DNA from: an uncultured Lachnospiraceae bacterium
GTDB taxonomy: Bacteria > Bacillota > Clostridia > Christensenellales > UBA1242
Assembly: GCA_964383665.1 (NCBI GenBank)
Contig: CAYLHO010000001.1
Coordinates: 166,921 to 230,920, forward strand
DNA length: 64,000 bases
Direction: 5' to 3'
Numbering within the stretch: the first letter of the stretch is position 1; each line of letters begins with the position of its first letter. The notes below the pieces were generated by a model. That model saw only the letters and a program-made list of their open reading frames with translations, was not told the DNA's origin and did no database searches. Below, one piece after another: positions 4,868 to 42,920 of this stretch. The translations under genes were made by a program, and so were the position numbers.

Positions 4868-4878
4868 GGACATAAACA

Positions 4879-11076: not shown

Positions 11077-11102
11077 ATAATTTAAAACTTAATTTTTCGT
11101 AT

Positions 11103-11133
11103 AAAAAAACAGCAAAAAATTTGCTGTTTTTTT
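11103..11133 (+). terminator. intrinsic terminator after rimM
   Basis: CAGCAAA/TTTGCTG hairpin followed by a T7 run. Confidence 0.8.
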
Positions 11134-11195
11134 GTTCAAATTAATTGCGTCGCAAATTTTTATGTGTTAGAATAAAAACAAAGTGGGGAAGGCGA

Positions 11196-12638
11196 ATGAG
11201 TTTCTGCAAGTTTTCAACGCAAAGCGTTATTAATAACAAAACAGAAGTTGATAACATTTTTATCAACGATTTTTTGCCTTATGCGCCGGATAATGCTGTC
11301 AAAGTTTATCTTTATGGGCTCTATAAATGCGGAAGTAACTCAATTGACAACACTCTTGAAAGTTTTTCGAAGGTTTTAAAACTTGGTGAAGATGAAATTA
11401 TGGAAATTTTCGAGTTTTGGGAAAACGAAGGACTTGTTCAAATTCTTAATTGCGAACCGGTTGAAATTCGTTTTATGCCGCTCAAAAATGTTTTAACCAA
11501 CACGAAAAAATATAATACTGAAAAATATGGAAACTTCTCGCAAAAAGCGCAAGAAATTATTGAGGGAAGAATGATTTCGCCAAACGAATTTAGTGAATAT
11601 TTCGACACGATTGAAACTTTCCATATCGAGCCTGAAGCGCTTCTTATGATAATGAAATATTGCGTTAACACAAAAGGCGGGAATGTTGGCTACCCATATA
11701 TTGTTGCAGTTGCAAAGAACTGGGCATATGACGGAGTTAAAACAGTTTCCGACGTTGAGGACAGGCTTATTTCTTATGAAAACATAAGCGAGGATTTGAA
11801 ACAAGTTTTGAAAGATCTTGGCTCAAGAAGAGTTCCTTCAATTGATGAAAAAGAACTTTTCATTAAATGGACAAAAGAACTTGGATTTGAACTTGCAGTT
11901 ATTCGTCAAGCAATTAAAATTAACAAAAAGCCAACAACGAAAATTTCATTTGCTCGTCTTGATGAAATTTTGATGAGTTATTATGAGATGAAACTCTTTT
12001 CAATTCCAGAAATTGAGGATTTTGAAAAATCTAAATCCGAAATGTATGTTCTTGCGAAAAAGATTGCGAGAGAACTTGGGCTTTACTATGAAAGTTACGA
12101 CAAAATTGTTGAAACATATGTTTCGAAATGGGAACAAATGGGCTTTGACGAGGAAGCAATTTTAGAAATTGCGTCATATTGTTTTTCTTCTTCAATTCGT
12201 CAATTCCAAGGCATGGATAATGCAATGCAAAAGTTCTATAAGCTTGGGCTTATAACTGTTTCATCAATTGAAAAATATCTTGGAGAAATCCTTGTTCAAG
12301 ACGATGAAATTAAGGAAGTTTTATCAATTTGCGGATTAGAGCGATCGGTTAATTCGTTCGACAGAGAATGTTTTAAAAATTGGACAGAAAATTGGAAGTT
12401 CCCGCTTGAAGTTATTAAGGAAGCGGCAGCTCTTGCAACGGGTAGATCGCAACCGGTTAAATATATTAACGGAATTTTGGCAAATTGGAACGAAAATGAT
12501 GTTAAGACGCTTGAAAAAGCTAAATCTCAAATTCAATTCCAATCAAAAAACAATCCAACAGAAAAACCAAAGTCAAGAGAATATTCAAAAGAGCAATTAA
12601 ATGCACTTTTCGACAGCCTTGAGGAGATTGAAGTTTAG
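11196..12638 (+). CDS. DnaD-domain replication initiation/helicase-loading protein (Firmicute DnaB-like)
   Basis: Start is the ATG at 11196, behind GGGGAAGG. Two DnaD-type modules are present (YIVAVAKNWAYDGVKTVSDVE and YINGILANWNENDVKTLEKA). It is followed by a DnaI-like ATPase. Confidence 0.7.
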   Translation: MSFCKFSTQSVINNKTEVDNIFINDFLPYAPDNAVKVYLYGLYKCGSNSIDNTLESFSKVLKLGEDEIMEIFEFWENEGLVQILNCEPVEIRFMPLKNVLTNTKKYNTEKYGNFSQKAQEIIEGRMISPNEFSEYFDTIETFHIEPEALLMIMKYCVNTKGGNVGYPYIVAVAKNWAYDGVKTVSDVEDRLISYENISEDLKQVLKDLGSRRVPSIDEKELFIKWTKELGFELAVIRQAIKINKKPTTKISFARLDEILMSYYEMKLFSIPEIEDFEKSKSEMYVLAKKIARELGLYYESYDKIVETYVSKWEQMGFDEEAILEIASYCFSSSIRQFQGMDNAMQKFYKLGLITVSSIEKYLGEILVQDDEIKEVLSICGLERSVNSFDRECFKNWTENWKFPLEVIKEAAALATGRSQPVKYINGILANWNENDVKTLEKAKSQIQFQSKNNPTEKPKSREYSKEQLNALFDSLEEIEV

Positions 12639-17613: not shown

Positions 17614-18372
17614 ATGGAGGAAAATAAAAATTAACAAATAAAAGCACGAAAAATGCTGTTAAAAAATCAGCAAAAAAAGATGAAACAGTTGTTAATGTTA
17701 ACGGGGAACAACCTGTTTCAATTTCAGTTCCAAACGAAACTGGAAACAGCAAAACCGAAGGAACAAACATAAACCTAACAATTAATTTTGCTGACGATAA
17801 AAAGAAAAAGCAAACAACAAAAAAGAAACCATCGAAAAAGAAAAACGAACAACAAAAGGAAAACGAAGTGAAGAAGAAAAAGTCTTATTGGTGGTGTCAC
17901 ATCAGTTGTTATGTTCTGCGGCAGCAAAGTCTTAAAAGCAATTTCCAACAAAATTAAAAGTTTTAAGAATCGCGATATTTCGCAAGAACAAATTGAAAGA
18001 GCAGTTTCAACAGCAAAAGCAGGGGATTGTAAGGAGCTTAATGATTTATTAAATAAAAAAGCAAGTAAAGTTGCACAACAAGTTCGTGCAGAAAATCCTA
18101 ACTGGACTAAAATGCGACAAGGATCAGAGATTCATAAAAGAATGAGTTATAGTCTTAACACAATTAAAGAATTTGATTTAAATTCTTATGGAAGAGCAGA
18201 TGGTATAGATGATATTGTAGGTATAATATTTGAGTTAAGACCACTCACCCCGAAATCTATGCTGGCAGGTTTGAAACAATTAGATAGATACGAGCAGGGC
18301 GCATTGCGTCACCAAGACTTGCAAAAAATTACAAATTGGATTAAAGTATTAATTACTTATGATACAAATTAA
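17614..18372 (+). pseudogene. frameshifted gene: Lys-rich N-terminal region, hydrophobic segment and C-terminal PD-(D/E)xK nuclease-like (polymorphic-toxin-type) domain
   Basis: Promoter-like sequence and an AAGGGGAG RBS precede the ATG at 17614, but a stop follows after 6 codons. The reading frame continues in frame 3 (17628-17900) and then frame 1 (17872-18372). Both shifts lie in A runs. The C-terminus has GSEIH, GRADGIDDIVGIIFELRP and GLKQLDRY. Confidence 0.5.
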
Positions 18373-18387: not shown

Positions 18388-18837
18388 ATGAAAACTATAG
18401 TCAACAACATAGGAGATGGCATTAGTGTTGTCGAGACCAATAAGAGAAATTGTGAATTTGCAACAAAAGAAATATTGTTGGAATATTTGAAAGAGCAATT
18501 CAAAAAATCCGGATTCAAAAAGACGAAGCAAACATGGTATAAAGATGATGGAGAGTTAATATATGTTTTTAATGTCCAAAATTCTCAATATGGAAGTGAC
18601 ACTTTTTATTTTAATATAGGTTTAATTTTTTCAAAAAAGGGCTTTAAGATGTCAAATCAAGAATGGAATTGTTGGGCGAGATTTCCATATGGGAAAACAA
18701 TGGAAAATACTTTTGAAAACATACTAAAATGGTTTGAAAAATATAATTCAATCGACAAGATAAAGGTGGAATCAACAAAACCAGTCAAATGTCTCACAGA
18801 TCCAAGATGGCGTTTGGGTGAAATCTTGGGCAAATAG
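18388..18837 (+). CDS. immunity-protein-like hypothetical (DUF4304-like)
   Basis: Starts 15 nt after the toxin-like ORF, behind an AAAGGGGAA RBS. LKEQFKKSGFKKTKQTWYKDDGELIYVFNVQNSQYGSDTFYFNIGL resembles the DUF4304 core (from memory). Confidence 0.5.
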   Translation: MKTIVNNIGDGISVVETNKRNCEFATKEILLEYLKEQFKKSGFKKTKQTWYKDDGELIYVFNVQNSQYGSDTFYFNIGLIFSKKGFKMSNQEWNCWARFPYGKTMENTFENILKWFEKYNSIDKIKVESTKPVKCLTDPRWRLGEILGK

Positions 18838-19192: not shown

Positions 19193-19957
19193 TCAGTTAA
19201 CTTGAACTTTGAATGAGACTGTTATTGTTCCGTTTGCCGGAAGATTTGGAAGGGGGAAACCAGTTGTTGGGTTGTAAGTTGGCTGTGGAGTTCCGTTAAC
19301 AACAACACTTTCGTTAACAAAAGTTACGTCAGAAGGAATTGAGTCGGAGAAAACAATATTCGTGTTTTCAAGCGAGCCTTCGTTTGTTATCGTTATTGTG
19401 TAGGTCATTTCGTTTCCTGAAACAACGGCAACAGGAGAGCATTCCTTCAAAAGATAGACTTCATTTTCCACGATGCTAATCTCCTTTTCATTTGATGTTA
19501 ATGAGAATTCTTGGCTGTCGAAGGTTAAAGTTAAATCAGTTTTGTTTTTAACAACCGATTCTTCCGGATATTCTGAAATTTGAATTTCGTAAGTTATCTC
19601 TGCGAAAGCGCCAAAACCGCCAATTTGGGCGTTTGAAGAAAACCCAGTTATTGGATTAAATGTTGGTTCGGGCTCATCGCTTATTTTAACAGTTCCCGGA
19701 ACAAACGATGCGCCCGGGGAAAGAGTGTCTTTAAAAGTGAAATTTTGGATTGTTAAATTCGAGTTGTTTGTTATTTTTGTTGTGACCGTTATTTTTTCTT
19801 TTGGAAGAGCCCAATCTTTTTGAACCGTTTTTTCAACAATAAAATCCGATTCAACCTTGGTTGTTGTGCAAACATTGCTGAAAGTTGTTAAATCAATTTT
19901 TCCGCCGTCTGGGTTGTCGATTTGAGATGTTATTTGCGCCTTGTTAACAATTCCCAT
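19193..19957 (-). CDS. tandem DUF11 (conserved repeat domain) protein without an obvious signal peptide
   Basis: Two about 110-aa repeats of the form T-x-T-I-T-N-x-G/S, D-[ST]-[IL]-[SP], FV, G[ST]V, NP-x-TGF. Examples are MTYTITITNEGSLENTNIVFSDSIPSDVTFV and ITVTTKITNNSNLTIQNFTFKDTLSPGASFV. The N-terminus MGIVNKAQITSQ is hydrophilic. Confidence 0.7.
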   Translation of the reverse strand: MGIVNKAQITSQIDNPDGGKIDLTTFSNVCTTTKVESDFIVEKTVQKDWALPKEKITVTTKITNNSNLTIQNFTFKDTLSPGASFVPGTVKISDEPEPTFNPITGFSSNAQIGGFGAFAEITYEIQISEYPEESVVKNKTDLTLTFDSQEFSLTSNEKEISIVENEVYLLKECSPVAVVSGNEMTYTITITNEGSLENTNIVFSDSIPSDVTFVNESVVVNGTPQPTYNPTTGFPLPNLPANGTITVSFKVQVN

Positions 19958-22445: not shown

Positions 22446-22463
22446 AAAAATTTATTGTATAAT
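22435..22463 (+). promoter_or_regulatory. near-consensus sigma-A promoter driving the large ncRNA
   Basis: TTGCAT (22435-22440), a 17-nt spacer ending in TG, then TATAAT (22458-22463). Confidence 0.7.
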
Positions 22464-22469
22464 ACTTAT

Positions 22470-23096
22470 GAAGGCGCAGTATTCTAGTCGAACAGACTTG
22501 ACCACATGACGTTAAAAGCGTTAAATGGCACAACTGTGAAGTTTCTGGTGTTGGCTTTGGTTGCCCAAACTGGGGCTGATGCTGGGAGTTAAGATTTTTG
22601 GGAGCGCTGTAATGGCATACAGAGTTGCGGCCCAGATTTCGTGGAGACCCAAGCGTTGGTGGTTTCAAATAAGAAGGCACTTCTTGGGATAAAACCTGCA
22701 TTGCGGTAAAAAAATTGCTGTGTGCAGTGTAGCCAGCCTTGAGTGGGGTGTTGGGATAAAGTTAACTGGCTAATTTAGTTTGGCCAAACGAATTTAGTCA
22801 AAGCTTATAACTAGCGGGCTTTTGAAATTCATTCTGCAAAATGGGATAAGGTCAAATCTCTGTTTGTTTGAGAAATTCTCTAGACTGTTTGCACCAAGCG
22901 GCGCAATTCGCTTCGGGGATTATAGTGTGGTCTAAGTGGCGATTCGGTGATGTCAACCTCTTAAATGGAAACGGCTTATTCGGCGACGAAAAGTGGGGAA
23001 GCGGGAAATCCAACCGAACCTATGCTGCAAGGTTTACCCGAATTTGCGAGCTCTTTGGCGAAAAAGAAGGAATTGAAATACATACCTTCTTTTTTT
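22470..23096 (+). ncRNA. large structured non-coding RNA, best explained as OLE (ornate, large, extremophilic) RNA
   Basis: About 625 nt from the predicted TSS to a hairpin plus U tract (23065-23096). Local G+C is clearly above the flanks. There are many short helices and only RBS-less, non-protein-like ORFs. An OapA-like membrane protein gene follows directly. Identity was not verified with a covariance model. Confidence 0.6.
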
Positions 23097-23137: not shown

Positions 23138-23833
23138 ATGGAAGATGAATTAAACAAAAATTTGACATCTCAAGAAGATGAAATAAAAACCGAAAAGATG
23201 CGGCAAGACGAAACCGACGGGCAAAAAGCAAAGAAGGCGGATTTAAAAACCGCGGCAGCCAAAGCGGCAAAGAAAAAGGTTCAACCATGGTGGGCTTGGC
23301 CAATAAAGATTTTGGTTATTGCAATGAGCCTTTCCCTTGCGTTCAGCGTTTTAAGCGAACTTTTGCTTTCGAATGTTGGAATTGCTGTTTCGGTTGTGGT
23401 TATTGTTTTCTTTGTTTCGCTTGGGATTTTAACCGATATGATTGGTGTTGCGGCAACTGCATGTTCAATTGAACCGTTTGCGGCAATGTGTTCGAGGAAA
23501 GTTCGTGGGGCAAAAGTTGCAATGGCGCTTGTTAAAAATGCAGAAAAAGTTTCAAGCATGTGTTGCGATGTTTGTGGTGATATTTGCGGAATCCTTTCTG
23601 GAACGGCTGGGGCAGCGATAACAGTTAAGTTGATTTCCGAAAGTGTGGGTAACTCGCTTCAAATTTTGATTGCAGGGCTTGTTAGTGCAACAATTGCTGG
23701 GTTAACGATTTTTGGAAAGGCAATGTGTAAAAAATTTGCAATTAACAATTGTTCAAAAATAATTCTTGGCGTTGGGAAATGCTGCAGCATTTTTTCAAGG
23801 AAAAAGAAAAATGAAAAGCAAGGTAAAAAATAA
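23138..23833 (+). CDS. multi-pass membrane protein, OapA-like (OLE-associated protein A candidate)
   Basis: 231-aa product with a Lys/Glu-rich N-terminal tail and about 4 TM helices. Conserved-looking cytoplasmic loops are TDMIGVAATACSIEPFAAM and CCDVCGDICGILSG. Its position directly after the large RNA is the main argument. Confidence 0.5.
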   Translation: MEDELNKNLTSQEDEIKTEKMRQDETDGQKAKKADLKTAAAKAAKKKVQPWWAWPIKILVIAMSLSLAFSVLSELLLSNVGIAVSVVVIVFFVSLGILTDMIGVAATACSIEPFAAMCSRKVRGAKVAMALVKNAEKVSSMCCDVCGDICGILSGTAGAAITVKLISESVGNSLQILIAGLVSATIAGLTIFGKAMCKKFAINNCSKIILGVGKCCSIFSRKKKNEKQGKK

Positions 23834-24031: not shown

Positions 24032-24162
24032 ATTTTAATCTTTTAGCGAAGTGCTATGCAAAAAAAACAAGAAATTTTTGGAGTAGGGCAGAGGTGTATA
24101 TTCATTTATATTTATAAATTACTTTTGTATTGAAATTCAAATTATAAATTTTTATAAAAAAC

Positions 24163-24270
24163 TGCATAAATTTTTATGCAAAAATCGCTTGCATATTTAT
24201 AAATTATGATGTATAATCATTCCAAACCTTGAAAAAGAACTTGAATATTTATGAATTTATAAATATTCAT
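24163..24270 (+). promoter_or_regulatory. argR promoter with ARG-box-like palindromes
   Basis: TGCATAAATTTTTATGCA (24163-24180). Promoter is TTGCAT (24189-24194), 17 nt, TATAAT (24212-24217). Downstream are TTGAATATTTATGAATTT and TGAATTTATAAATATTCA (24241-24269). Confidence 0.45.
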
Positions 24271-24362
24271 AATCGCTAAACAGCCCTAAAATAGGTGTAT
24301 ATAGCGATTTTAAAACTTAAAACTTTGATACGTTTTTAAAAACTTTAAAACGGCGAAAAAGT

Positions 24363-24415: not shown

Positions 24416-24877
24416 ATGGCACGTTCAGTTAGACAATCGAAAATTTTGGAACTCATTTCAACAAGAGAAATTGAAACTCAAGATGAACTTGTTGAATGTT
24501 TGCGCAATGCAAATTTTGATATTACGCAAGCAACAATTTCAAGAGACATTAAAGAGCTTGGTTTAATCAAAATTTTAAGTGCTGAAACTGGAAAATATAA
24601 GTACTCACTTGTTGATTCCGGAGAGCAAGCAATATCAAACAAATACATATCAATTTTCAAAGAGGCTGTTATTTCAATTAAACCCGCTCAAAATCTTGTT
24701 GTTCTTAAAACAATTAAGGCAATGGCTTCGTCAATTTGCGGGCTTGTTGATAAATTGAATTTAGATTCCGTTATGGGGGCTGTTGCTGGCGACGATACGG
24801 TTATGATCATTTTGCCAACTTGCGAGTCTGCTCTTAAGGTTGTTCAAACTCTTGAAAATTTAATTCATTCAAATTAA
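24416..24877 (+). CDS. argR: arginine repressor
   Basis: RQSKILELISTREIETQDELVECLRNANFDITQATISRDIKELGL winged-helix domain, and a C-terminal oligomerisation domain with GAVAGDDTVMII. Confidence 0.92.
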   Translation: MARSVRQSKILELISTREIETQDELVECLRNANFDITQATISRDIKELGLIKILSAETGKYKYSLVDSGEQAISNKYISIFKEAVISIKPAQNLVVLKTIKAMASSICGLVDKLNLDSVMGAVAGDDTVMIILPTCESALKVVQTLENLIHSN

Positions 24878-24906
24878 AAAAAGCGCCAAGGTTTGGTGCT
24901 TTTTTT
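24874..24906. terminator. bidirectional terminator between argR and the recombinase gene
   Basis: A-run, AGCGCCAA/TTGGTGCT hairpin, then a T run. Confidence 0.7.
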
Positions 24907-25936
24907 ATCTCAATTTAACTGCAGTTGATGCGTTTCGGCGAATGTCGTCGTCAATTGCCGCATAGTGTTTTTTCGTTGTGTTAACGTCTTTGTGTCCAAG
25001 AACGTCGGCAACAATGTAGATATCATGAGTTTCGCGATATAGGCTTGTTCCATAGGTGCTTCGAAGTTTATGAGGCGAAATTTTTTTAAGCGGAGTTACT
25101 GCTTGAGCATATTTCTTAACTAAATTTTCAACCGCGCGCGGGGTTATTCTTTTTCTTTGAAGAGAAAGGAAAAGTGCTTGCTCATCGGGATTTACGTCGG
25201 AAAGTTTTTCGCGAGCATTAAGCCATGTTATAAGGGCTTCCTTAATTTCGTTAGAGAAGTATAAAACGGTTTCATTTCCGCCTTTTCGCGTTATTTTAAA
25301 ACTGTTTGTTTCCAAATTTATGTCGGAAACATTAAGCCCAACAAGTTCGCTGATACGTATTCCTGTCCCAAGAAAGGTTGTTAGAATTGCAACATCTCGT
25401 TCGCGAGTTTTGCGATTGTATGTGATTTCCCTTTTCGTAAGATTTTCCGGGCATTCTGCCTCGTCGAGAAGGCGAGCGACTTCATCGGGTTCAAGACGAA
25501 TTATCTCCTTGTCGTGAATTTTTGGGGTTGCAATTTTGGTTATGACGTTTGAAGAAATAAGGTCGCTGTTAAAAAGAAACTTAAACAAACTTCGAATTGC
25601 TGAAAGTTTTCGTGCTTTGCCTTTTTCTTTGTTAATGTGAACTTTCCCGTCCTTTTCGAAGTAGGAAACGTAGCTTAAAAAACGTTCAACATCACGAGAT
25701 TTAAGGTTGTTAAGCTGGGAAAGTGTTATGTTGTTTGGTGAAACACCAAGAGTGTTTCCAAGATATGTGAAAAAGAGTTTTAAATCGGTTAGATAGTTAA
25801 CTCTAGTAAGCGGCGAGGTGTTGTTCTCAATTGATATAACAAAATCTTGAACGTATGATGGAAAAAACATAAGTTCTTGTTGAATTTTCTTTTGATTAAG
25901 AAGATCTCGTTGTGTGTGATAGCTGATGTTTGCCAT
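24905..25936 (-). CDS. XerS-like tyrosine site-specific recombinase
   Basis: 343-aa product. Catalytic residues are present: GIRISE (Arg), TRKGG (Lys), PHKLRST (His-x-x-Arg), LGHKDVNTTKKHY (His and Tyr). The central region (RERDVAILTTFLGTGIRISELVGLNVSDINLETNSFKITRKGG) closely parallels streptococcal XerS as I remember it. Confidence 0.75.
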   Translation of the reverse strand: MANISYHTQRDLLNQKKIQQELMFFPSYVQDFVISIENNTSPLTRVNYLTDLKLFFTYLGNTLGVSPNNITLSQLNNLKSRDVERFLSYVSYFEKDGKVHINKEKGKARKLSAIRSLFKFLFNSDLISSNVITKIATPKIHDKEIIRLEPDEVARLLDEAECPENLTKREITYNRKTRERDVAILTTFLGTGIRISELVGLNVSDINLETNSFKITRKGGNETVLYFSNEIKEALITWLNAREKLSDVNPDEQALFLSLQRKRITPRAVENLVKKYAQAVTPLKKISPHKLRSTYGTSLYRETHDIYIVADVLGHKDVNTTKKHYAAIDDDIRRNASTAVKLR

Positions 25937-25996
25937 GATTTAATTATGGTATAAAAAGTTAAGTTTTGTCAAATAATTTGAAAGGCAATATGGAAG

Positions 25997-26034
25997 ATTT
26001 TTGCATAACACACTAGATATTGTGTAATATGCAA
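25997..26034. other. candidate dif-like recombination site (imperfect palindrome) next to the XerS-like gene
   Basis: ATTTTTGCATAA-CACACTAGATA-TTGTGTAATATGCAA. The outer arms TTGCATAACACA and TGTGTAATATGCAA are inverted. It could alternatively be a promoter or operator. Confidence 0.3.
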
Positions 26035-26133
26035 CGCATAGCACACAAGCATGTTTAGAAAGTTTTTTATAACATTTGCAAAAGGGGTAAAATTGTTCTA
26101 TACTTGTTTTAAGTTACACACAAGGAGAAAAAT

Positions 26134-27423
26134 ATGATATCAATTGACTTAATTAAAAACGACCCTGAACGCGTTAACAGGGCGATTGAAAAAAGAGGAA
26201 TGAAAATTGATTTTAAACCTCTTTTGGAACTTGACAAGGAAAGAAGAGAAAATCTTGTTAAAGTTGACGAACTTAAAGCAAAAAGAAATGCGGAAAGTGC
26301 GAAAGTTCCTGCTTTGAAAAAGGAAGGAAAAGATTGCAGCGCAATTTTTGCGGAGATGAAAGAACTTGGCGAAGAAATTTCAAAGCTTGATGAAAAGGTT
26401 TCGGAACTTGAAAACAAAATTTTTGAATTTCTTGCTCCAATTCCAAACTTGGTTGACGAAGATATTATTGCCGGCGGGAAAGAGGCAAATGAGGAGCTTC
26501 GTGAGTTTGGCAAAAAGCCAGAGTTTAGTTTCAAACCTTTAAGCCACATCGACATTTGCAAACTTAACGGATTCATCGATTATGAACGCGGGGCAAAAAT
26601 TGCCGGAAACGGAAGCTGGGTTTACACAGGCGAAGGCGCAGAACTTGAATGGGCAATTTTGAATTTCTTTGTTTCTGAACATCTTGCCGATGGCTATCGT
26701 TTCATGTTGCCTCCACATATGCTTGGATATGAATGCGGCTTCGTTGCAGGGCAATTCCCTAAATTCGACAGTGAAGTTTATTGGCTTGACGAAAAATCAA
26801 AAACAAGCCGTTTCCTCCTTCCAACAGCGGAAACTCCACTTGCAAACTTATATCGCGGGGAAATTATCCCAGAAGAACAACTTCCAATTAAGATGTTTGC
26901 ATACACACCATGCTATCGCCGTGAGGCTGGAAGTTATCGCGCAGAGGAACGCGGAATGATTAGAGGACATCAATTTAACAAAGTTGAAATGTTCCAAATA
27001 ACAACACAAGATGGCTCGGACAAGGCTTTTGACGAACTTGTTATGAAAGCAGAAAACCTTGTTAAAAAACTTGGGCTTCATTTCAGAACTTCAAAACTTG
27101 CTGCGGAAGACGTTTCTGCAACAATGGCAAGAACATATGACATTGAAATTTGGATTCCAAGCATGGGAATTTACAAAGAAGTAAGTTCCGCATCGAATGC
27201 AAGAGACTATCAAGCACGTCGCGGAAACATTAGATATCGCAACAACGAAACAAAGAAAACAGAATTTGTCCACACTTTGAACGCTTCAGGGCTTGCAACA
27301 AGCCGTTTGTTCCCTGCAATTTTGGAACAATATCAAAATGAAGACGGAACGGTTCGTGTTCCAGAAGCTTTGCAACCTTTCATGCATGGCAAGAAAGTTA
27401 TTGGGAAAGGAAAGAACGCTTAA
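26134..27423 (+). CDS. serS: seryl-tRNA synthetase
   Basis: Coiled-coil N-terminal arm and class II motifs (YTPCYRREAGS, RGHQFNKVEMF, LNASGLATSR). Confidence 0.95.
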   Translation: MISIDLIKNDPERVNRAIEKRGMKIDFKPLLELDKERRENLVKVDELKAKRNAESAKVPALKKEGKDCSAIFAEMKELGEEISKLDEKVSELENKIFEFLAPIPNLVDEDIIAGGKEANEELREFGKKPEFSFKPLSHIDICKLNGFIDYERGAKIAGNGSWVYTGEGAELEWAILNFFVSEHLADGYRFMLPPHMLGYECGFVAGQFPKFDSEVYWLDEKSKTSRFLLPTAETPLANLYRGEIIPEEQLPIKMFAYTPCYRREAGSYRAEERGMIRGHQFNKVEMFQITTQDGSDKAFDELVMKAENLVKKLGLHFRTSKLAAEDVSATMARTYDIEIWIPSMGIYKEVSSASNARDYQARRGNIRYRNNETKKTEFVHTLNASGLATSRLFPAILEQYQNEDGTVRVPEALQPFMHGKKVIGKGKNA

Positions 27424-28443
27424 ATGCCAAAAGACAGAAACATAATCGACAGGGGAATGATTGAGGAGTTTGCGCAAGATATTTCAAGCGAAAAAGCGCG
27501 AAGTGTTTTTTATGCGTTAAGTGATAAACTTGACGAAGTTTCAGCAGAACTTTCGCAAACTAATGTTCTCATTCAAGAACAGAATGTTGAGTTGTTTTTG
27601 GCGGGGGATTTCTTAACTGAAACATTAACTCAAGTTTCAGAGTTAAATTTTTATCTTTCAATTCGAAATGCTCAAGTTGAATTGAATTCTGTTGATTTAA
27701 TGACGAACAGATTCAAAATTTTTTGGAACAAAGTTAAAAAAGCATGGAAAAACAGGAACAAAAATTCAGCAAGAGCAAGAAAGAAAGAGGCAAAGAAAAT
27801 TAAAAAGGCAAACTCGCAGATAACAGAAACGCAACTTCGCGAGAAAAAAGAAAAGCCATATTCGCTTGTCGATTTTAAAATGGATTTCTATGATGGACTT
27901 GCAACGAAGTTGACTAATTTAACAGTTTTATACAACTATGAAGATAAAATTCGAATTATTGGGCGAGACGAGTTTGGATATCGAATTAATCTTTTTCCGG
28001 TTATAAAGCATGACGATTTTTTCAGAATTTGGGACGCAGAAAGAAATAAGTTTAAAGAAATAAGACCTTTCGAGGCGAAATCAATCCTTGAAAAAAAAGA
28101 GAAAGAAATTGCGGGGCTAACGCCGCTTGGAAAGGAAAATGGCGAAATCCTTTATGAGATTATAAGAATTTTTAAGATTTTGTTCTATAACCTCGAAAAA
28201 TCGAACGACTATCAATTTATTGAAAGTTTGATCAACTTTGTTCCTTCCTCGCTCTTTAAATATGAAAACGAAGAACACCATTCTTACAATGTTTTTATTA
28301 AGGTTCTTAATTATCTTTCAAATTCACCACTTTCCGAAATTCGTTCAATCTACAATCAAGAAAAAACAATTTATATGCAAGAAGGTGTTTCGGTTTTAAC
28401 AATTCGTTCCTTCCTTAAGGAAATTAAAAATTGTTTAGGATAA
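27424..28443 (+). CDS. hypothetical protein (coiled-coil N-terminus, Lys-rich linker, ~190-aa C-terminal domain of unknown function)
   Basis: The ATG directly abuts the serS TAA (TAAATG). The 339-aa translation looks protein-like. I recognise no catalytic motif. Confidence 0.6.
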   Translation: MPKDRNIIDRGMIEEFAQDISSEKARSVFYALSDKLDEVSAELSQTNVLIQEQNVELFLAGDFLTETLTQVSELNFYLSIRNAQVELNSVDLMTNRFKIFWNKVKKAWKNRNKNSARARKKEAKKIKKANSQITETQLREKKEKPYSLVDFKMDFYDGLATKLTNLTVLYNYEDKIRIIGRDEFGYRINLFPVIKHDDFFRIWDAERNKFKEIRPFEAKSILEKKEKEIAGLTPLGKENGEILYEIIRIFKILFYNLEKSNDYQFIESLINFVPSSLFKYENEEHHSYNVFIKVLNYLSNSPLSEIRSIYNQEKTIYMQEGVSVLTIRSFLKEIKNCLG

Positions 28444-28475
28444 TAAAAAAACTCAAGCGAAAGCTTGAGTTTTTA
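28444..28475. terminator. bidirectional terminator at the point where gene orientation flips
   Basis: A7, 8-bp stem ACTCAAGC/GCTTGAGT, then T4. Confidence 0.8.
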
Positions 28476-29741
28476 TTTGCAGCTTAACTTGACAAGTGTT
28501 TCAACATGAGAAGTTTGAGGGAACATGTCGAAGGGTTGAATTTCCTTAATTTCGTATGTTTCACAAAGAATTTTTAGGTCACGCGAAAGCGTTGATGGAT
28601 TGCAAGAAAGATAGATTAAGTTTGGAATTTTAACCGAACAAACAAGGCTTAAAATTGATTTGTCAATTCCAGCTCTTGGCGGGTCGAAAACAATGTGGGA
28701 AATCGTTTCGTCTTTAAGAATTTTTGGAATTTCAACTTTGCAATCGCCGCATATGTTATGAATGTTTAATAGGTTATTTCTTTTAATCATCTCGCCGCAA
28801 TCAAAACTTGCCGATTGATTAATTTCAATTGAAAAAACCTCGCCTGCTTTTCGAGAAAGAATTGAACTTAAAAAACCTGTTCCGCCATATGCGTTAATAA
28901 TTTTTCCTTGTTTAACCTCATCGCAAATTTCTTCATAGATCATGTTTTGAACTTCCTCATTAACTTGAAGGAAAGATGAGGGCGAAATTTTGTTTTCAAT
29001 CCCAAGAATGTTATATGTTTGCGATTCTTCTCCGCTGATGTTAAAAATGCAATTCGTTATGTTTGAACTGTTTTGAATTTTGTTGATTGAAAGGTTAATT
29101 GAAAAATCAATCCCAAGGTTTTCAAGAGAAGAAATTAAAAGCTCTTTTTGTTTGAATTCGTTAACGTTTGAAACAAAAGTAAGTTGAAAGGTCTTTCCTA
29201 AAATGCGAATGTGAAGCGCTTTGAAATTGTTGTTTGAAAGAGAAATAAAATTGTTGATTGTTTTAATAAGTTCTGTTAAATCAGCTTTGAAAAGAGGGCA
29301 GTTTTCAACCTCAATTTTGTCCGTGTCATTTGCAATAAAACATAGTTTATTGTTTGAAATTGAGAAGTTAACCTTGTTGCGATAGTGAAATTCATTTGCA
29401 GACAAGCAGTTTTTAACATTAACGTTTGTTTTAAGAGCGCGCGATAAAATATTTTTAACTTGATTTGTTTTAAATTCAAGCTGAAGATTTTTACTCATGT
29501 GTTGAAGTTGGCAGCCTCCGCAAATTCCAAAATACTTACATTTTGGTTTTGTTCGATTTGGCGATTTTTCAATTACTGAATTAAGCTTGCAAACGCAGAA
29601 GTTTTTTTCTTTCCTTAAAATTTCAAATTTAACCCTTTCGCCTTTAATCGAAAAAGGGACGAAACAAACAACGCAATTGTTTTTAACAATTCCGTTTCCA
29701 TTAATTCCGTTGTCAACAACTGTTCCTTCAAAAAAATTCAT
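28473..29741 (-). CDS. 23S rRNA (uracil-5-)-methyltransferase, RumA/RlmCD family
   Basis: Start is the ATG at 29741; the longer ORF would run through the tRNA-Leu gene. Features are a TRAM-like N-terminus, the Fe-S Cys cluster CKYFGICGGCQLQH, and the SAM fold with DPPRAG and SCNPST. Confidence 0.82.
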   Translation of the reverse strand: MNFFEGTVVDNGINGNGIVKNNCVVCFVPFSIKGERVKFEILRKEKNFCVCKLNSVIEKSPNRTKPKCKYFGICGGCQLQHMSKNLQLEFKTNQVKNILSRALKTNVNVKNCLSANEFHYRNKVNFSISNNKLCFIANDTDKIEVENCPLFKADLTELIKTINNFISLSNNNFKALHIRILGKTFQLTFVSNVNEFKQKELLISSLENLGIDFSINLSINKIQNSSNITNCIFNISGEESQTYNILGIENKISPSSFLQVNEEVQNMIYEEICDEVKQGKIINAYGGTGFLSSILSRKAGEVFSIEINQSASFDCGEMIKRNNLLNIHNICGDCKVEIPKILKDETISHIVFDPPRAGIDKSILSLVCSVKIPNLIYLSCNPSTLSRDLKILCETYEIKEIQPFDMFPQTSHVETLVKLSCK

Positions 29742-29747
29742 AAAAAA

Positions 29748-29836
29748 TGGTGCGGAAAACAGGGTTTGAACCTGCAAGGGATTTAACTCCCACAAGAATC
29801 TGAATCTTGCGCGTTTGCCAATTTCGCCATTTCCGC
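29748..29836 (-). tRNA. tRNA-Leu (anticodon CAG), CCA encoded
   Basis: The reverse complement folds as acceptor GCGGAAA/TTTCCGC, D stem GCG/CGC, anticodon arm CAAGA-TTCAGAT-TCTTG, long variable arm GGGA..TCCC, and T arm GCAGG-TTCAAAC-CCTGT. Confidence 0.85.
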
Positions 29837-29858
29837 ATTATAAAAGGGCATTTGCCCT

Positions 29859-30302
29859 TTATTCGGCCTCAACAACAACTTTAAAAACTGCTGAAATTTC
29901 AGGGTAGATTTTTGCAGTTATTGAATATGTTCCGGCGTTTTTGATTGGGGAGGCAAGAACAATTTTTTTCTTATCAAGTTCAACACCTTGCGCAAGAAGA
30001 GCATTTGAAATTTCTTGGGAGGTTATGCTTCCAAAAATTTTCCCATTCTCGCCGCATTTAACTTTAAGATAAACTGTTTTTGTTTTAACAACTTCTGCCA
30101 ATGCTTTTGCGTTCGCAATTTCAACCGATTTATGATAGGCGCTTGCCTCTTTTTGTTGCTTGTTTTCGTTAAGAGCAACAGAAGAAGCCTCTTTTGCAAG
30201 ACCTTGCTTAAGAAGGAAGTTTCTTGCGTATCCGTCGGAAACGTTAACAATTTCGCCTTTTTTTCCGCTTCCTTTAACATCTTTTAGCAATATAACTTTC
30301 AT
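29859..30302 (-). CDS. rplI: 50S ribosomal protein L9
   Basis: [30 protein letters not shown]. Confidence 0.93.
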
Positions 30303-30426
30303 AAATTTTCTCCTTAATTAATTTTAAAACAAAAATTAAGATAATGTCAAGGGAAAGTGTTGAATAATAGGGCAGGAGATGGAAAAAATAACAATATATA
30401 AGCAAAAAAATAAGGAGAAGGCAAAT

Positions 30427-30834
30427 ATGGATATTAGATGCAGAAAAACAACATGTGAATTTAACAATAATCACACGTGCATTGCAAAGGAAATTTCAAT
30501 TGGCGAAAACATTTGTTGTTCGTCCTATCAACTTGCAGAAGAACTTTCTGGAACTCCAGATAAAAAGCAGGGGAAACACAACAACAAAAAAGTTATGGAC
30601 AACACGAAAAACATGTCGAACAGGGAAGTTTCAAAACTTAAAACAGAGGATTATTCGAAGAAAATGTTTGAGAAGGAACAGAAAAATGCTCCGTTTCGAA
30701 ACCGAAAAACAATTAATATAGATTGCAGCGCGAATTGTTTATTTAATAACAACGGAGTTTGCCGAGCAAATGGAATAACCGTTAACGACACGCAAAATGA
30801 AAGCCCGGTTTGCATGGGATTTTTAGAAAAATAA
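30427..30834 (+). CDS. Cys-rich protein with two DUF1540-like modules
   Basis: Start is the ATG at 30427, 9 nt after AAGGAG. The modules are IRCRKTTCEFNNNHTCIAKEISIGENICCSSY and IDCSANCLFNNNGVCRANGITVNDTQNESPVCMGF. Confidence 0.65.
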   Translation: MDIRCRKTTCEFNNNHTCIAKEISIGENICCSSYQLAEELSGTPDKKQGKHNNKKVMDNTKNMSNREVSKLKTEDYSKKMFEKEQKNAPFRNRKTINIDCSANCLFNNNGVCRANGITVNDTQNESPVCMGFLEK

Positions 30835-31079
30835 ACAAAAGGTTACCCTTAATTTAAGGTGCCTTTTTTGATTATGTCGACAAAAAATTGGAGAGAGCAC
30901 CATTTAAAGAAAGATAAAATCTATTCGTAAAAGACACATTTTGCGAATAGATAGGGGTGTTTTCGCGCGGTTTTTCGCGTTTTTGCAATTTTTTATCATT
31001 ATTTGGTTTTTTATAATTTTGTTGATTTGTGTTTATCACATAATGTACTATGCAAAAAAAAATAAGCAAAACAATTTGC

Positions 31080-31625
31080 TTATTTTCTGTTTATAAGGTT
31101 TTCAATAATTTGAACGGTCTTTTCCGGATTATCGTTTTGGATTATTAAATTGTAGTTTGGCCTGTGTGCGCGTTCGAAATCGAATCGATCCATTCTCTTT
31201 TCAATTTCTTCTTTTTTGTCGCCCCGATTTGTAAGTCTGCTTATAAGTTCACTTTTTTGAACGTCAAGGAAAATTGAAATGACTTTAACTTTGTTTGAAA
31301 GGCGCGAAACCATGTTCTTTTGTCCAATAACGCCAATATCCTTAATAAAATTATCTTCAGAATTTATAACATTATTGATTGTTTCGGAAAGCAAACCATA
31401 GTAATTTCCATGAATTTCCTCATATTCAAAAAGTTCATTGTTTTTGATTTTTTTCTCAAAATCTTCTTTTGTTAGATGAATATAGGCATGAGTTAATTCA
31501 TCTCTTTGCTCTTTTGCGCGCGATGTGCAAGACTGAAGATATTGCAAATTTGGGTTTCTATCAAGCAAAAGGTTTATGATTGTGTTTTTTCCTGAACCCG
31601 AGCAACCAGAAAGTAAAATTAACAT
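31080..31625 (-). CDS. guanylate kinase-like P-loop kinase
   Basis: P-loop GCSGSGKNT, plus YIHLTKEDFEKKIKNNELFEYEEIHGNYYG, which resembles the GMP-binding region. Confidence 0.68.
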   Translation of the reverse strand: MLILLSGCSGSGKNTIINLLLDRNPNLQYLQSCTSRAKEQRDELTHAYIHLTKEDFEKKIKNNELFEYEEIHGNYYGLLSETINNVINSEDNFIKDIGVIGQKNMVSRLSNKVKVISIFLDVQKSELISRLTNRGDKKEEIEKRMDRFDFERAHRPNYNLIIQNDNPEKTVQIIENLINRK

Positions 31626-33562: not shown

Positions 33563-34789
33563 TTACGCTGCTGCAATCATCCAATCAATGTAAACTCCAT
33601 AGCCTTTTGTTGGGTCGGAAACAAAAACATGGGTAACTGCGCCAATAAGCTTGTCGTTTTGCATGATTGGGCTTCCGCTCATTCCTTGGATAATTCCGCC
33701 AGTAAGCTCTAAAAGTCGTTTATCAACAACGCGGAAAACAAAGCTTTTGTCGCTTTCGGAGGGTTGATAATTTGCTTTTATAATTTCAATTTCATATTCT
33801 TCGCTTACGCCTGAAACGTTGCTTATAATTTTCGCCTTTCCTGGCTTAACGGTAAGCCGGCTTGCAACATCGGCTGTTTTGTTTGCATCAACAATTTTGG
33901 TTTTGTCGCTTATTTGTCCGAAAACGCCAAATTGACAGTTTTTTTCAATTGTTCCCTTGCAGTTTTTTCCCTGCATGAAAATCCCTTTAATTTCGCCGGG
34001 TTCGCCTTTTTCGCCTTTGTTAACGCCAACAATGCTGCAAGGAAAAAGTTTGCCGCTTTTTGCCGGGACAATTGCCCCCGTTTCATAATCGGTTATTGCG
34101 TGGCCAAGAGCACCAAATTTAAGCGTATCGCAGTCAACAAATGTAAGAGTTCCAACGCCTGCTGCGTCGTTTCGAACCCAAAGCCCAATTTTGTATGTTC
34201 CGCTTTCTTTATCGAGCGCTGGAGTTAAGTTTAAATTGATGGTTTCGCCTTTTCTGATGATTTCAAGTTTAAGTTCTTCTCCGTCATACTCGTTTCCAAC
34301 TATGGATTCAAGTTCCTTAAGATTTGTAACTTTTTTTCCGTTGATCGACGTGATTATGTCGCCAACTTTAAGTTTTGAATTCTCAAAAGGGTCAATATTT
34401 CCGTTTTCGGTTGAAATGCAGTTGCTTCCAAGAACAACAAGGCCATCAACATCAATTGTAAGTCCAACAGGAACACCTCCCAAATAAACTTCTTTTGTTT
34501 CAACAAGGTTTGCTTCAATTGATTTGATTGGAATGAATCCAAAAAGTTTAAAAACAAGTTTTTTAATGCTAAATTTTTCTCCGCCAACGTTAACACTTTC
34601 TTCGCCCAAACTTGCGGAAATTCCCTTTCCAAAGGGTTTTTCGTTGTTAATATTTTCGATGTCCTCAAAGGTTAACGGAAGGCTTTCAGGAAGGTTATGT
34701 ATGTCGATAAATTGAACGCTGAAGCATAAAATTAAAATTGAAAGCGAAACAACCCCAACAAAAACAAATAAACTTATTCTCTTTCTCAT
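33563..34789 (-). CDS. spoIVB: SpoIVB peptidase (S55)
   Basis: Start is the ATG at 34789, behind GGGGGAAG. Features are an N-terminal TM, a PDZ domain (GDIITSINGKKV) and the S55 motifs GVGTLTF, GALGHAITD and GMSGSPI. It lies downstream of recN, as in Bacillus. Confidence 0.87.
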   Translation of the reverse strand: MRKRISLFVFVGVVSLSILILCFSVQFIDIHNLPESLPLTFEDIENINNEKPFGKGISASLGEESVNVGGEKFSIKKLVFKLFGFIPIKSIEANLVETKEVYLGGVPVGLTIDVDGLVVLGSNCISTENGNIDPFENSKLKVGDIITSINGKKVTNLKELESIVGNEYDGEELKLEIIRKGETINLNLTPALDKESGTYKIGLWVRNDAAGVGTLTFVDCDTLKFGALGHAITDYETGAIVPAKSGKLFPCSIVGVNKGEKGEPGEIKGIFMQGKNCKGTIEKNCQFGVFGQISDKTKIVDANKTADVASRLTVKPGKAKIISNVSGVSEEYEIEIIKANYQPSESDKSFVFRVVDKRLLELTGGIIQGMSGSPIMQNDKLIGAVTHVFVSDPTKGYGVYIDWMIAAA

Positions 34790-34887
34790 TCTTCCCCCGC
34801 GCTTAAAATTGCATGATTCCGTTTTAGTTTGCGCGAGAAAAGCAATGTTATTCCATACCAATAAAAAAAGCCCATATAGAGGACTTT

Positions 34888-36585
34888 TTATATTTTCATT
34901 TTAAATTTTCTGTTGTTTTCAAGGGTTTCTTTTGTAATTTCAAGCTTCTTTTCGTCAACGCTTCCATAAGTTAAAAGCGCAATTTGATAAGTAATTTCGT
35001 CGCTAGAAAGATTTTTAATTGACGTTTGGGTTCTTTCGCCGTCGCTTGACTTTGAAACGAAGAAATAGGAATCGCCCATGGACGCAACTTGCGGCAAATG
35101 GGAAATGCAAAGAACTTGATAGCTCCTTGAAAGTTTGGCAATTTTTTCGGCAACTTGTGTTGCAACTTTTCCGCTTATTCCCGAATCAATTTCATCAAAA
35201 ATTAAAGTTGCAGGGCCGTTTATGTTTGCAATTATTGTTTTGAAAGCAAGCATAAAGCGGTTCATCTCGCCCCCAGAAATTGTTTTTGCAAGAGGTTTAA
35301 GTTCCTCGCCAAAATTTGCGCTGAACAAAAATTCAACATCTTCAAGGCAGTTCATGGAATATGTTTCAATTTCGTAAAGTGAGTTTGCAAGAGGGAAAAA
35401 GTTAACTTTGAATTGCGCTTTCAAAATTCCAAGTTCGGCAAGCGCCGCCGTAAGTTTTTGTTCAATTTCGTTTGCGTGAGCGCGGCGAATTTGCCCCAAC
35501 TCGTTAAATTTTAAAGTTGCTTTTTCAATAAGATTTTTCTTCTCGCTGTTAAGCGAACTTAAAATCTCTTTCGAGTTCTTAAGCATTTCAAGCTCGGACG
35601 ATGCATGTTCATAAAACTTGTTAATTTCGTTAAGGCTTCCGCCATATTTTCGTTTAAGCGAATCAATAACGTCGCGTCGTTCAATCATTTGATTAAGTTC
35701 GTTTTCGTTGAAATCGTATTCGCTTGAAAGCGAAAAAACTTCTTCTCCAAGCTCCTCAAGATTGATTATATTTTCATCAAGTTTTTGGGCAAGGTCACAA
35801 AGTTTATCGTCATATTTTTCAACGCAGCGAAGCGAATTTAAGCATTTTTTAAGAATTTCAAGCGCTCCGTTTTCTTCAATAAGCATGCTTGAGGAAGTTG
35901 AAATTGATTCCATAATCTTTTCCGAATTTGAAAGTTTCTTAAGTTTTTCTTCCAAAATTATGTCTTCATTTTCAACAAGGTTTGCATTCTCAATTTCGTT
36001 AACTTGGAAAGAGAGAAGGTCAATTTGGCGTTCGCGGCTTGCTTCGTCTCCGCCAAGTTTTTTAATTTTTGACGAAATTTCGTTAAGAGAAACAAGCATA
36101 TTTTCAATTTCATTTTTAACTTTTTCTTCGTCTTTTGGCTTGTATAAATCGAGAATTTCAAGGTGATTCTTTTGTTTTAAAAGCGAAATACTTTCGTTTT
36201 GGCCGTAGGAATCAACAAGAGCTTCGCCAACCTGTTTAAGCATTGAAACAGTTACAATTTCGCCGTTGATTCGTGATTCACCTTTTCCATTTTGGGAGAA
36301 TGATCTTGAAAGAAGAACCTCGTTTGATTGTTCAATCCCAAAACTTTCAAGAACAGAATTAACATGAGTTGAAATGTTTGAGAATAAGGCAGAAACAACC
36401 ATTGTTTCCTCGCCTGCGCGAATTAAAGTTTTATCGGCTTTGCTTCCAAGCGCAAAGTTGAGAGAATCGATTATTATGCTTTTTCCAGCGCCAGTTTCAC
36501 CAAGAATAACATTAAAACCGCTGTGAAAATCAATTTCAAGCGATTTAATTAATGCAACATTTTTGATTTTAAGTTTCTCAAGCAT
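34888..36585 (-). CDS. recN: DNA repair protein RecN
   Basis: Walker A GETGAGKS, long coiled coil, signature SGGE and Walker B LIFDEIDSG. Confidence 0.93.
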   Translation of the reverse strand: MLEKLKIKNVALIKSLEIDFHSGFNVILGETGAGKSIIIDSLNFALGSKADKTLIRAGEETMVVSALFSNISTHVNSVLESFGIEQSNEVLLSRSFSQNGKGESRINGEIVTVSMLKQVGEALVDSYGQNESISLLKQKNHLEILDLYKPKDEEKVKNEIENMLVSLNEISSKIKKLGGDEASRERQIDLLSFQVNEIENANLVENEDIILEEKLKKLSNSEKIMESISTSSSMLIEENGALEILKKCLNSLRCVEKYDDKLCDLAQKLDENIINLEELGEEVFSLSSEYDFNENELNQMIERRDVIDSLKRKYGGSLNEINKFYEHASSELEMLKNSKEILSSLNSEKKNLIEKATLKFNELGQIRRAHANEIEQKLTAALAELGILKAQFKVNFFPLANSLYEIETYSMNCLEDVEFLFSANFGEELKPLAKTISGGEMNRFMLAFKTIIANINGPATLIFDEIDSGISGKVATQVAEKIAKLSRSYQVLCISHLPQVASMGDSYFFVSKSSDGERTQTSIKNLSSDEITYQIALLTYGSVDEKKLEITKETLENNRKFKMKI

Positions 36586-41600: not shown

Positions 41601-42920
41601 TTAAGCAAGTTCGGCAATGAAATAGTAATTTTCAAAGGATATGTATTTAACCGAGTAGAACTTGCCAATTTCAATGTTTTGCGAACACGGAATTTTAACG
41701 CAAAAATCAACGTTAGGGCTCATTTTTTGGCTTCTTGCCTCAAAATAGCCTGTTTCCTCATCGAATGAATCAACAACAACTTCTTCAACTTTTCCAATTT
41801 GTGATAAGTTTTTTTGGAATGCGATTTCCGCTTGAATTTTTTGAACCTTTTTAAGCCTTCGTTGTTTGATAAATTCAGGAACTTGATGTTTCATGTAAAA
41901 TGCTTTTGTGTTTTCCTCGCGGGAATATGCAAAAAATCCAACATTATCGAGTTGCGCTTCCTTAAGAAAGGAGCAAAGATTTTTAAATTGTTTTCTTGTT
42001 TCGCCTGGGAAACCAACAATAAATGTTGAGCGGATTGAAATTTCGGAAGGTAAATTGTTAATTTTTTCAATGAGATTTCGAATTTCGCCCTCGCGGCTTC
42101 GGCGATTCATTGCAACAAGAATTTCGTCGTCGATATGTTGAAGTGGAATGTCAACATATTTGCAAATTTTTGGCGATGATGAAATAAGTTCAAGAAGTTC
42201 GTCGGAAACAAGTTCAGGATATAAATAGTGAAGACGAATCCACTTTAAATCTTTAATTTTAACAAGTTCTTTTAAAAGCTCAACAATTTTTGGTTTTCCA
42301 TAAAGATCTGTTCCATATCGAGTTACATCTTGGGCAACAACAATAAGTTCCTTTGCTCCGATTGAAACAAGTTGCTTTGCGCGCGAAACAACCTCTTCAA
42401 TTGGGCTTGAAACATAGCGCCCTCTTATTCGTGGAATTGTGCAATAGGCGCAACAGTTGTTGCAACCGTCGGAAATTTTTAAATATGCAAAATGTTTTGG
42501 CGGAATTAAATATTGCTTTTTTTCGTGGTTGAATTTAACTTTTTCGCCATATAATTCAGCAATTATTTCAACAATTTTATTGTTATCTTTAACTTCAACA
42601 AAGCGGTCAACTTCGGGCAAATATTTCTCAAGTTCTTCCTTAAATCTTTGGCAAAGACACCCTGTTACGATAATTTTTTCAACTTGCCCCGCTTTTTTTA
42701 GGGCTGCCATTTCCAAGATGTTTTCAATCGACTCTTTTCGCGCCGGCAAAATGAAAGCACAAGTGTTAATAATAACAATTTGAGCGTGTTGGGAATTTGA
42801 AAAAGTAAATCCAAAAGAGGAAAGATTATGCATCATTTCCTCAAGGTCAACTCTGTTTTTGTCGCATCCCAAACTTATGAATGCAATTTTCTTTTGTTTT
42901 AAATCCATGTTATTCAACAT
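41601..42920 (-). CDS. rimO: ribosomal protein S12 methylthiotransferase RimO (MiaB-family radical SAM)
   Basis: IAFISLGCDKNRVDLE N-terminal cluster, radical SAM CNNCCAYC and a TRAM C-terminus. rimO-pgsA-cinA-recA synteny. The start is either 42920 or 42908. Confidence 0.8.
   Translation of the reverse strand: MLNNMDLKQKKIAFISLGCDKNRVDLEEMMHNLSSFGFTFSNSQHAQIVIINTCAFILPARKESIENILEMAALKKAGQVEKIIVTGCLCQRFKEELEKYLPEVDRFVEVKDNNKIVEIIAELYGEKVKFNHEKKQYLIPPKHFAYLKISDGCNNCCAYCTIPRIRGRYVSSPIEEVVSRAKQLVSIGAKELIVVAQDVTRYGTDLYGKPKIVELLKELVKIKDLKWIRLHYLYPELVSDELLELISSSPKICKYVDIPLQHIDDEILVAMNRRSREGEIRNLIEKINNLPSEISIRSTFIVGFPGETRKQFKNLCSFLKEAQLDNVGFFAYSREENTKAFYMKHQVPEFIKQRRLKKVQKIQAEIAFQKNLSQIGKVEEVVVDSFDEETGYFEARSQKMSPNVDFCVKIPCSQNIEIGKFYSVKYISFENYYFIAELA

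Follow-up and report, generated by a model that had tools for sequence, protein, structure and literature searches.

Why two long blocks of genes face each other in a 64,000-nucleotide stretch of the genome of an uncultured Lachnospiraceae bacterium (contig CAYLHO010000001.1; the whole stretch is called the window here) is the question that this locus raises. A preliminary description read the facing blocks as the signature of a replication terminus, centered it on a bidirectional terminator at 28.45 kb, and pointed to a nearby gene for a XerS-like recombinase. The terminus region is an ordinary feature of a bacterial chromosome, and we think it likely that the window spans the terminus, or chromosome-dimer-resolution, region of the chromosome of a low-GC gut Clostridia bacterium and that this region is centered on a 30-bp dif-like site. 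The terminus reading held insofar as it names a terminus and dimer-resolution region, and it is carried by a site conserved in the recombinase family, by gene convergence, and by a skew that flips when relatives are pooled. Its center and the argument from base skew did not stand as written: the center is not the terminator but the dif-like site at 30.93 kb.

Facing genes, one recombinase, and a 30-bp site

The switch in gene direction is real. When open reading frames (ORFs) of at least 100 amino acids (aa) were picked without overlap, those to the left of 28.46 kb comprised 23 on the plus strand and 3 on the minus strand, and those to the right comprised 27 on the minus strand and 3 on the plus strand (Fisher P = 2.2e-9). 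Both blocks extend another 9 kb beyond the window on each side. An earlier tally of 27 of 31 plus-strand genes and 28 of 32 minus-strand genes was reproduced to within about two genes once small ORFs and RNA genes were included, namely, small ORFs in gaps (e.g., 5997-6215, 10085-10333, 10358-10594, and 52942-53181, the last of which has a counterpart in locus L092 called MinE), tRNA-Ser (+), tRNA-Leu (-), and the ornate large extremophilic (OLE) RNA (+). The bidirectional terminator is also present where the blocks meet, as a hairpin with a 12-pair stem, preceded by an A-run and followed by a T-run.

The product of the recombinase gene, xer, is the sole tyrosine recombinase among the approximately 55 annotated genes of the window, in agreement with the single XerS-like gene described earlier. 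XerS is its best match among the NCBIfam models (209.9 bits over the full length, compared to 164 bits for XerC and 159 bits for XerD), and the catalytic R-K-H-R-H-Y set is intact when read from the translation (R194, K218, H289, R292, H315, and Y325). The NCBI name "tyrosine recombinase XerS" is already attached to at least one Lachnospiraceae homolog (P0156), and thus, the protein family has not gone unnoticed.

Relatives of the locus were gathered in a scan with one genome per species, which gave 413, and the best 80 loci were analyzed. These came from metagenome-assembled genomes (MAGs) and isolates of Clostridia, ranging from Christensenellales-like lineages to Lachnospiraceae, at 48 to 92% identity. 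In nearly every long locus, xer was found at, or a few genes from, a large convergent switch of orientation, and in the longest contig of a relative (823 kb), xer lay at 319 to 340 kb. A search for homologs in closed genomes returned incomplete contigs only, the longest of 1.15 Mb. An inverted-repeat search upstream of xer returned one recurring palindrome, CTATTCGYAAAA-N6-TTTTRCGAATAG, in 53 of the 80 loci. The family consensus is ctaTtCGcAAAA-N6-TTTTgCGaAtag, with CG, AAAA, and TTTT positions that are invariant in 53 of 53 sites, and its 12+6+12 layout is shared with tyrosine-recombinase core sites. Copies without a mismatch occur once per locus and always 5' of xer; their distance from the gene ranges from 76 bp to 8.1 kb and does not exceed 400 bp in 26 of the 53 relatives. 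Flanking genes differ among the loci, and large-scale convergence is a constant feature. When the 53 loci were pooled, genes facing the site and genes opposing it numbered 230 and 45 on the left and 324 and 151 on the right, where the right-hand count includes the 53 xer genes, all of which point away from the site; the share of genes that face the site is 84% on the left and, without xer, 77% on the right.

The window carries a single perfect copy of this palindrome, CTATTCGTAAAAGACACATTTTGCGAATAG, at 30921 to 30950, where the chance expectation is 1e-8. It is also the one copy in all 82 kb that were examined, that is, the window together with 9 kb of flanking sequence at either end, supplied by contigs of the same organism. 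The site is placed in the gap between convergent genes at 30379-30834 (+) and 31080-31625 (-), and we propose that it is the target of the XerS-like recombinase. A dif-like palindrome had been described 2.5 kb from the switch, and this description could refer to either of two palindromes: one at 26002 to 26033, within the range of 24416 to 28475 that the preliminary description covered, or the family site, which lies at the same distance beyond the switch and outside that range. In the close relatives L013 to L016, the same site is found 3.7 to 8.1 kb from xer.

The palindrome that does fall within that range, at 26002 to 26033, was rejected as dif. Its spacer is 8 bp, it is conserved in the window and in L012 to L017 only, and it misfits the consensus of the family-conserved site. 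It may be an operator. Separately, a degenerate or half-degenerate copy of the 30-bp site was seen right beside xer in L020, L021, L022, L035, L049, L073, and L087, and in L021, L035, L049, L073, and L087 a perfect copy is present too, up to 2.6 kb further out. Such degenerate copies would be expected if insertions had occurred at the site or if integration had left hybrid sites behind.

An FtsK-type translocase is encoded on the right. Its gene had been placed 15 kb from the switch, which is essentially right. Candidate FtsK-orienting motifs are few in the 82 kb: the single copy of GAGAAGGG noted previously was confirmed, and GGGNAGGG was found twice in the forward direction on the left and once in the reverse direction on the right. 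The motif GAAGAAG, with counts of 9:5 and 5:16, follows gene orientation and is confounded with the coding strand.

How dimers might be resolved here can be sketched. Septal FtsK would pump DNA toward the 30-bp site at division and would activate two to four copies of a single recombinase bound to the two arms. The recombinase copies would swap strands across the 6-bp center and resolve chromosome dimers, as in streptococcal XerS/difSL. The two long blocks would face the region because genes have been selected to run with replication forks, which historically would have converged here. Under this model, the terminator at 28.45 kb would be merely the last convergent gene boundary, and rlmD, tRNA-Leu, and rplI would have come to lie on the "wrong" side of the site.

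Base skew and competing explanations

Several observations weigh against a terminus at the site, and they concern the base skew, the recombinase, and the spacing between site and gene. Whole-sequence GC skew in the window is lopsided (about +0.13 on the left and about -0.03 on the right), and the maxima of whole-sequence cumulative skew fall on the dif-like site (AT, 30938; purine, 30957; GC, 31168). We conclude, however, that the peak reflects coding-strand composition and gene orientation, because the skew at third positions (left plus-strand genes, -0.01; left minus, -0.36; right minus, -0.26; right plus, 0.00) and at fourfold-degenerate sites (left plus, +0.09; left minus, -0.26; right minus, -0.13; right plus, +0.23) follows the gene strand. 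Neither at 28.45 nor at 30.93 kb does fourfold-site skew change sign; it tracks the strand of the gene, not its side, and does so from -9 kb to +72.7 kb. In a weighted regression of fourfold sites, the strand term was +0.36 (P = 0.0016) and the side term was not significant, and a covariate for genes that face the terminus had a coefficient of 0.013 and removed none of the variance. Plus-strand genes on the right are G-richer than minus-strand genes on the right (odds, 1.6; P = 0.011; extension included), which is the wrong sign for a terminus, and plus-strand genes on the left differ from minus-strand genes on the right (P = 8e-8 at fourfold sites). Moreover, after masking of ribosome-binding sites and RNA genes, intergenic skew had the same sign on both sides (left, +0.089; right, +0.020). 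Skew had been proposed as a check on the terminus reading, but whole-sequence skew is not independent of gene orientation. As a practical warning, gene orientation alone can make cumulative skew peak in a strongly strand-biased genome.

The recombinase score of 209.9 bits is below the curated XerS cutoff of 267 (NCBIfam NF003462, an equivalog model), and nine homologs from across the family score 171 to 213 bits on the same model, all below the cutoff. "XerS-like" is a fair name, but it denotes a sister group and not an equivalog, because the best model is XerS and yet the window protein and its homologs fall short of the cutoff. The site, too, is not adjacent to xer in the window. It is 5.0 kb from the xer start codon, unlike the sites of XerS and XerH systems, and serS, a hypothetical gene, rlmD, tRNA-Leu, rplI, and a small gene lie between them. 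Judged by these comparisons, the locus appears to be a terminus/dif region with a single-recombinase-type Xer module that lies outside XerS proper.

Pooling restores the expected pattern. In the 53 relatives, coding-strand fourfold GC skew was -0.047 and -0.059 for genes that face the site and -0.160 and -0.205 for genes that face away from it. This symmetric skew is what a replication terminus predicts, and it provides the method with a positive control. Within the window, the neutral-site signal says that the plus strand is the G-rich, leading strand across all 82 kb. One explanation, which refines the terminus reading, is that the site is both dif and the center of gene orientation, but that forks meet more than 40 kb to its right through a long-standing imbalance of the replichores. 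The fork from the left, with the plus strand leading, would run through the site for more than 40 kb; forks, if the neutral-site skew is a guide, would usually meet elsewhere; and 35 to 42 kb of the right block would be replicated head-on though it faces the site. Such a displacement is consistent with the uniform G-richness of the plus strand at fourfold sites (strand effect, +0.24 to +0.36), with the near absence of an effect of facing the terminus, and with the same one-sided pattern in L013 to L016. It is also consistent with the related loci, as the facing blocks differ at |z| > 3 within 10 kb on either side of the site in 12 of 30 loci, six in each direction, and offsets between the site and the switch of skew therefore look common in the family. 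Published offsets of dif from the GC-skew shift point span 0 to 1.39% of the genome within one sigma and do not exceed 3% (PMC3025954). With an assumed genome size of approximately 1.5 to 2 Mb, an offset of more than 40 kb would fall near the top of these values. Nonetheless, the test on the right side rests on six plus-strand genes, gene-specific codon usage widens the differences between sides (z-scores across loci have a standard deviation of 3.55), and intergenic skew on the right is near zero and not clearly positive. Moreover, a 40-kb block of essential genes that has long been replicated head-on would be unusual with Firmicute-type replication proteins. Because codon usage explains some of the spread and the right-side test has six genes, we give a displaced meeting zone about an even chance. 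Two other accounts of the skew were rejected. Had the right block been inverted recently, its codons would still show leading-type skew, and the skew observed is of the lagging type; higher expression of the right block, with C-rich third positions as the consequence, does not account for the minority genes, which follow their strand on both sides.

That the switch is instead an ordinary convergent boundary inside a replichore, with a stray integrase whose attachment or regulatory site is the palindrome, both unrelated to a terminus, we consider unlikely. The absence of a flip at neutral sites, a recombinase below the XerS cutoff, and the occurrence of the same palindrome in phages would all be compatible with such a boundary, but at least 53 species, ranging from Christensenellales-like MAGs to members of the Lachnospiraceae, retain the recombinase and the site as a single-copy pair. 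In these species, the flanking genes vary while the large-scale convergence is constant, and the pooled skew flips at the site. Moreover, there are no phage or island genes around the recombinase or the site in the window. Far less probable still is that the junction is an assembly artifact or the contig a plasmid. Misassembly had been named as a concern by the preliminary description, and contigs of 53.7 kb (L005) and 3.2 kb (L003), independently assembled from other samples, argue against it, as they cross the junction. The junction is also crossed in the relatives L013 to L016 and L098 to L101, the arrangement is kept at 81 to 92% recombinase identity, and ffh, serS, recA, ftsK, rplI, and nrdD are core chromosomal genes. 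What might have favored an artifact is that a contig of another sample (L001) stops at exactly base 28461 and that another contig (L002) runs on from there into an IS200/IS605-type transposase. These breaks are accounted for by a strain polymorphism, as in one sample an insertion sequence of that type (Y1 transposase; L002 9438-10171) is inserted in the terminator loop between 28461 and 28462.

Feature coordinates and neighboring genes

The window has a G+C content of 36% and carries the core genes of a Clostridia-type Firmicute. The identities given earlier to ffh, serS, rplI, recA, tkt, nrdD, and ftsK were borne out by Pfam. The left block includes dus, ppdK, asp23, nusB, xseA, proS, ffh, rimM, dnaB_2, a dnaI-like gene, trxB, glmM, xfp, the OLE RNA, argR, serS, and a hypothetical gene, and the right block includes a gmk-like gene, dacB, spoIVB, recN, a gene for a Mur ligase, recA, cinA, pgsA, rimO, ftsK, tkt, nrdG, nrdD, minD/E, the PFOR gene, hpf, and fba. 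Coordinates of the main features are collected in Table 1.

Table 1. Positions of the principal features in the 64,000-nucleotide window
Feature	Coordinates	Strand	Remarks
Left co-oriented block	55-28443	+	23 of 26 genes of at least 100 aa on the plus strand
XerS-like tyrosine recombinase, 343 aa	24905-25936	-	Transcribed away from the dif-like site
Clade-specific palindrome TGCATAACACAC-N8-GTGTAATATGCA	26002-26033		Just upstream of the xer promoter-like site at 25943-25972
Bidirectional intrinsic terminator	28444-28475		Hairpin at 28447-28474; meeting point of both blocks
rlmD-like methyltransferase, tRNA-Leu(CAG), rplI	28473-30302	-	Between the switch and the dif-like site, pointing away from the site
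Small cysteine-rich protein	30379-30834	+	Homolog has a faint DUF1540 match; last plus-strand gene before the dif-like site
dif-like site CTATTCGTAAAA-GACACA-TTTTGCGAATAG	30921-30950		12-bp arms matching at 11 of 12 positions, 6-bp center
Right co-oriented block	31080-63597	-	25 of 27 genes on the minus strand
ftsK/spoIIIE-family DNA translocase	42910-45675	-	Alpha, motor, and gamma (DNA-recognition) domains; 12 kb from the dif-like site

Several neighbors deserve mention in their own right. A full-length OLE RNA is found at 22455-23069 (+), with a score of 334 bits and a gathering score of 50. Directly 3' of it, at 23138-23833 (+), is the gene for a 231-aa membrane protein without a family match, in the place where the OLE-associated membrane protein would be expected. 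A protein with a Tox-REase-9 nuclease-toxin domain is encoded at 17911-18372 (+) and is followed by a DUF4304 protein at 18388-18837 (+); the two resemble a polymorphic toxin with its immunity protein. The strand opposite to both encodes, at 19193-19957, a CLIPPER-domain protein. Upstream of argR, at 24150-24275, are the AT-rich repeated palindromes TGAATATTTATGAATTTATAAATATTCATA and TGCATAAATTTTTATGCA, which look like ARG boxes for autoregulation.

The argR and recN-spoIVB genes are adjacent and codirectional in Bacillus and Clostridium. In the window, argR (24416-24877, +) and recN-spoIVB (33563-36585, -) are on opposite strands and on opposite sides of the dif-like site, and this split suggests an ancient rearrangement in which one break fell immediately behind argR. 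The convergent junction has also gained genes. In the 823-kb contig of a relative with 92% recombinase identity (L098), the genes for a 495-aa protein and a GDSL lipase (4605-7328) are inserted at the junction, between rlmD and the gene for a 339-aa hypothetical protein. Because two extra genes are inserted there, the junction appears to be a hot spot for variable content.

Known Xer systems, phage copies, and the wider family

How the window system relates to known Xer systems is best seen by comparison with XerS/difSL, the single-recombinase dimer-resolution module of Streptococci and Lactococci (Le Bourgeois 2007, PMC1914069; Nolivos 2010, PMC2965235). Like that module, the Clostridial one appears to have a single recombinase in the size class of approximately 345 to 356 aa for which XerS is the best hidden Markov model, and the pair sits at a convergence of gene orientation in a genome that encodes FtsK with a gamma domain. 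The site is likewise an AT-rich palindrome with arms ending in ...CGnAAAA and TTTTnCG..., to be compared with the difSL arms TTTCCGAAAA and TTTTCTTGAAA (PMC5357621), and it lies on the 5' side of the gene, at no more than 400 bp in half of the relatives. Unlike in XerS/difSL, the recombinases score 171 to 213 bits against the cutoff of 267, and the arms are 12 bp long and near-perfectly symmetric around a 6-bp center, whereas difSL lacks such symmetry, and a longer center has been described for it (PMC5357621). Moreover, in the clade of the window, the site is 3.7 to 8.1 kb from xer with housekeeping genes in between, and the hosts are Clostridia. A literature search found XerS/difSL described only for Streptococci and Lactococci, plus an xerS gene in Lactobacillus helveticus; Clostridia were not mentioned.

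Other Xer systems share some of these traits. XerH/difH of Helicobacter and Campylobacter also has a single recombinase, of 354 to 362 aa, and a dif near the gene at the terminus (PMC5357621), but the sequence similarity is much weaker: the XerH structure 5jjv matches the window recombinase at 44.7 bits, over the C-terminal half only, compared to 75.8 bits for XerD (1a0p). In the XerCD (CodV/RipX)-dif system of Bacillus and most Firmicutes, the enzymes are also Xer-clade tyrosine recombinases, and the site also has an architecture of 11-12 + 6 + 11-12 in the terminus region. However, a search of the window for a Bacillus-type dif (22 nucleotides, up to three mismatches) gave no match, the window protein is approximately 45 aa longer than XerC or XerD, and one such gene was seen in the window. 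The XerL/dif system of Legionellales and IMEX elements resembles the present case in the long, near-perfect inverted repeat, in that dif and xer need not adjoin, and in that mobile elements carry the same site (PMC9765430), but the recombinase lineage is unrelated, and the mobile elements here are tailed phages with putative integration.

The phage copies were found in an exact scan of viral contigs (IMG/VR, L105 to L119) with the 30-bp pattern, which gave 15 matches, far above chance. At least seven of the contigs have the site a few hundred bases upstream of a gene for the large terminase subunit, with the portal gene next in six and the seventh stretch ending inside the terminase gene. Two terminase families are represented, and the contigs range from 43 to 55% G+C. 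In L111, for example, the site (8131-8160) is followed by terL (8742-10151) and the portal gene (10247-12151), and in L117, the site is at 5445-5474 and terL at 3543-5039 (-). No Xer homolog was found near the site in the stretches of viral contigs, and Pfam gave no match for 10 further ORFs of L111. The viral contigs could be candidate tailed phages that exploit the Xer enzyme of their host, or plasmid-prophages that resolve multimers with it. The viral copies also lend indirect support to the palindrome being a recombination target that mobile elements exploit.

Perhaps the arrangement is general. We propose tentatively, and with somewhat less than even confidence, that a large part of the Clostridia, from Christensenellales-like gut lineages to Lachnospiraceae, resolves dimers by a single XerS-like recombinase acting on a symmetric 12+6+12 site that is not described in the papers searched; that the site can drift kilobases from its gene; that the long-term meeting point of forks is often tens of kilobases off; and that tailed phages carry the site beside the terminase gene, either to integrate via the host enzyme or to resolve multimers of their own. 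For the window itself, the result fixes the terminus region and a precise candidate for dif, which aids the scaffolding of MAGs, the estimation of growth rate from read depth, and the design of marker-excision tools. Ultimately, if the pairing of a conserved site with a XerS-like enzyme is real across many Clostridia, single-recombinase Xer systems would extend well beyond Streptococcaceae.

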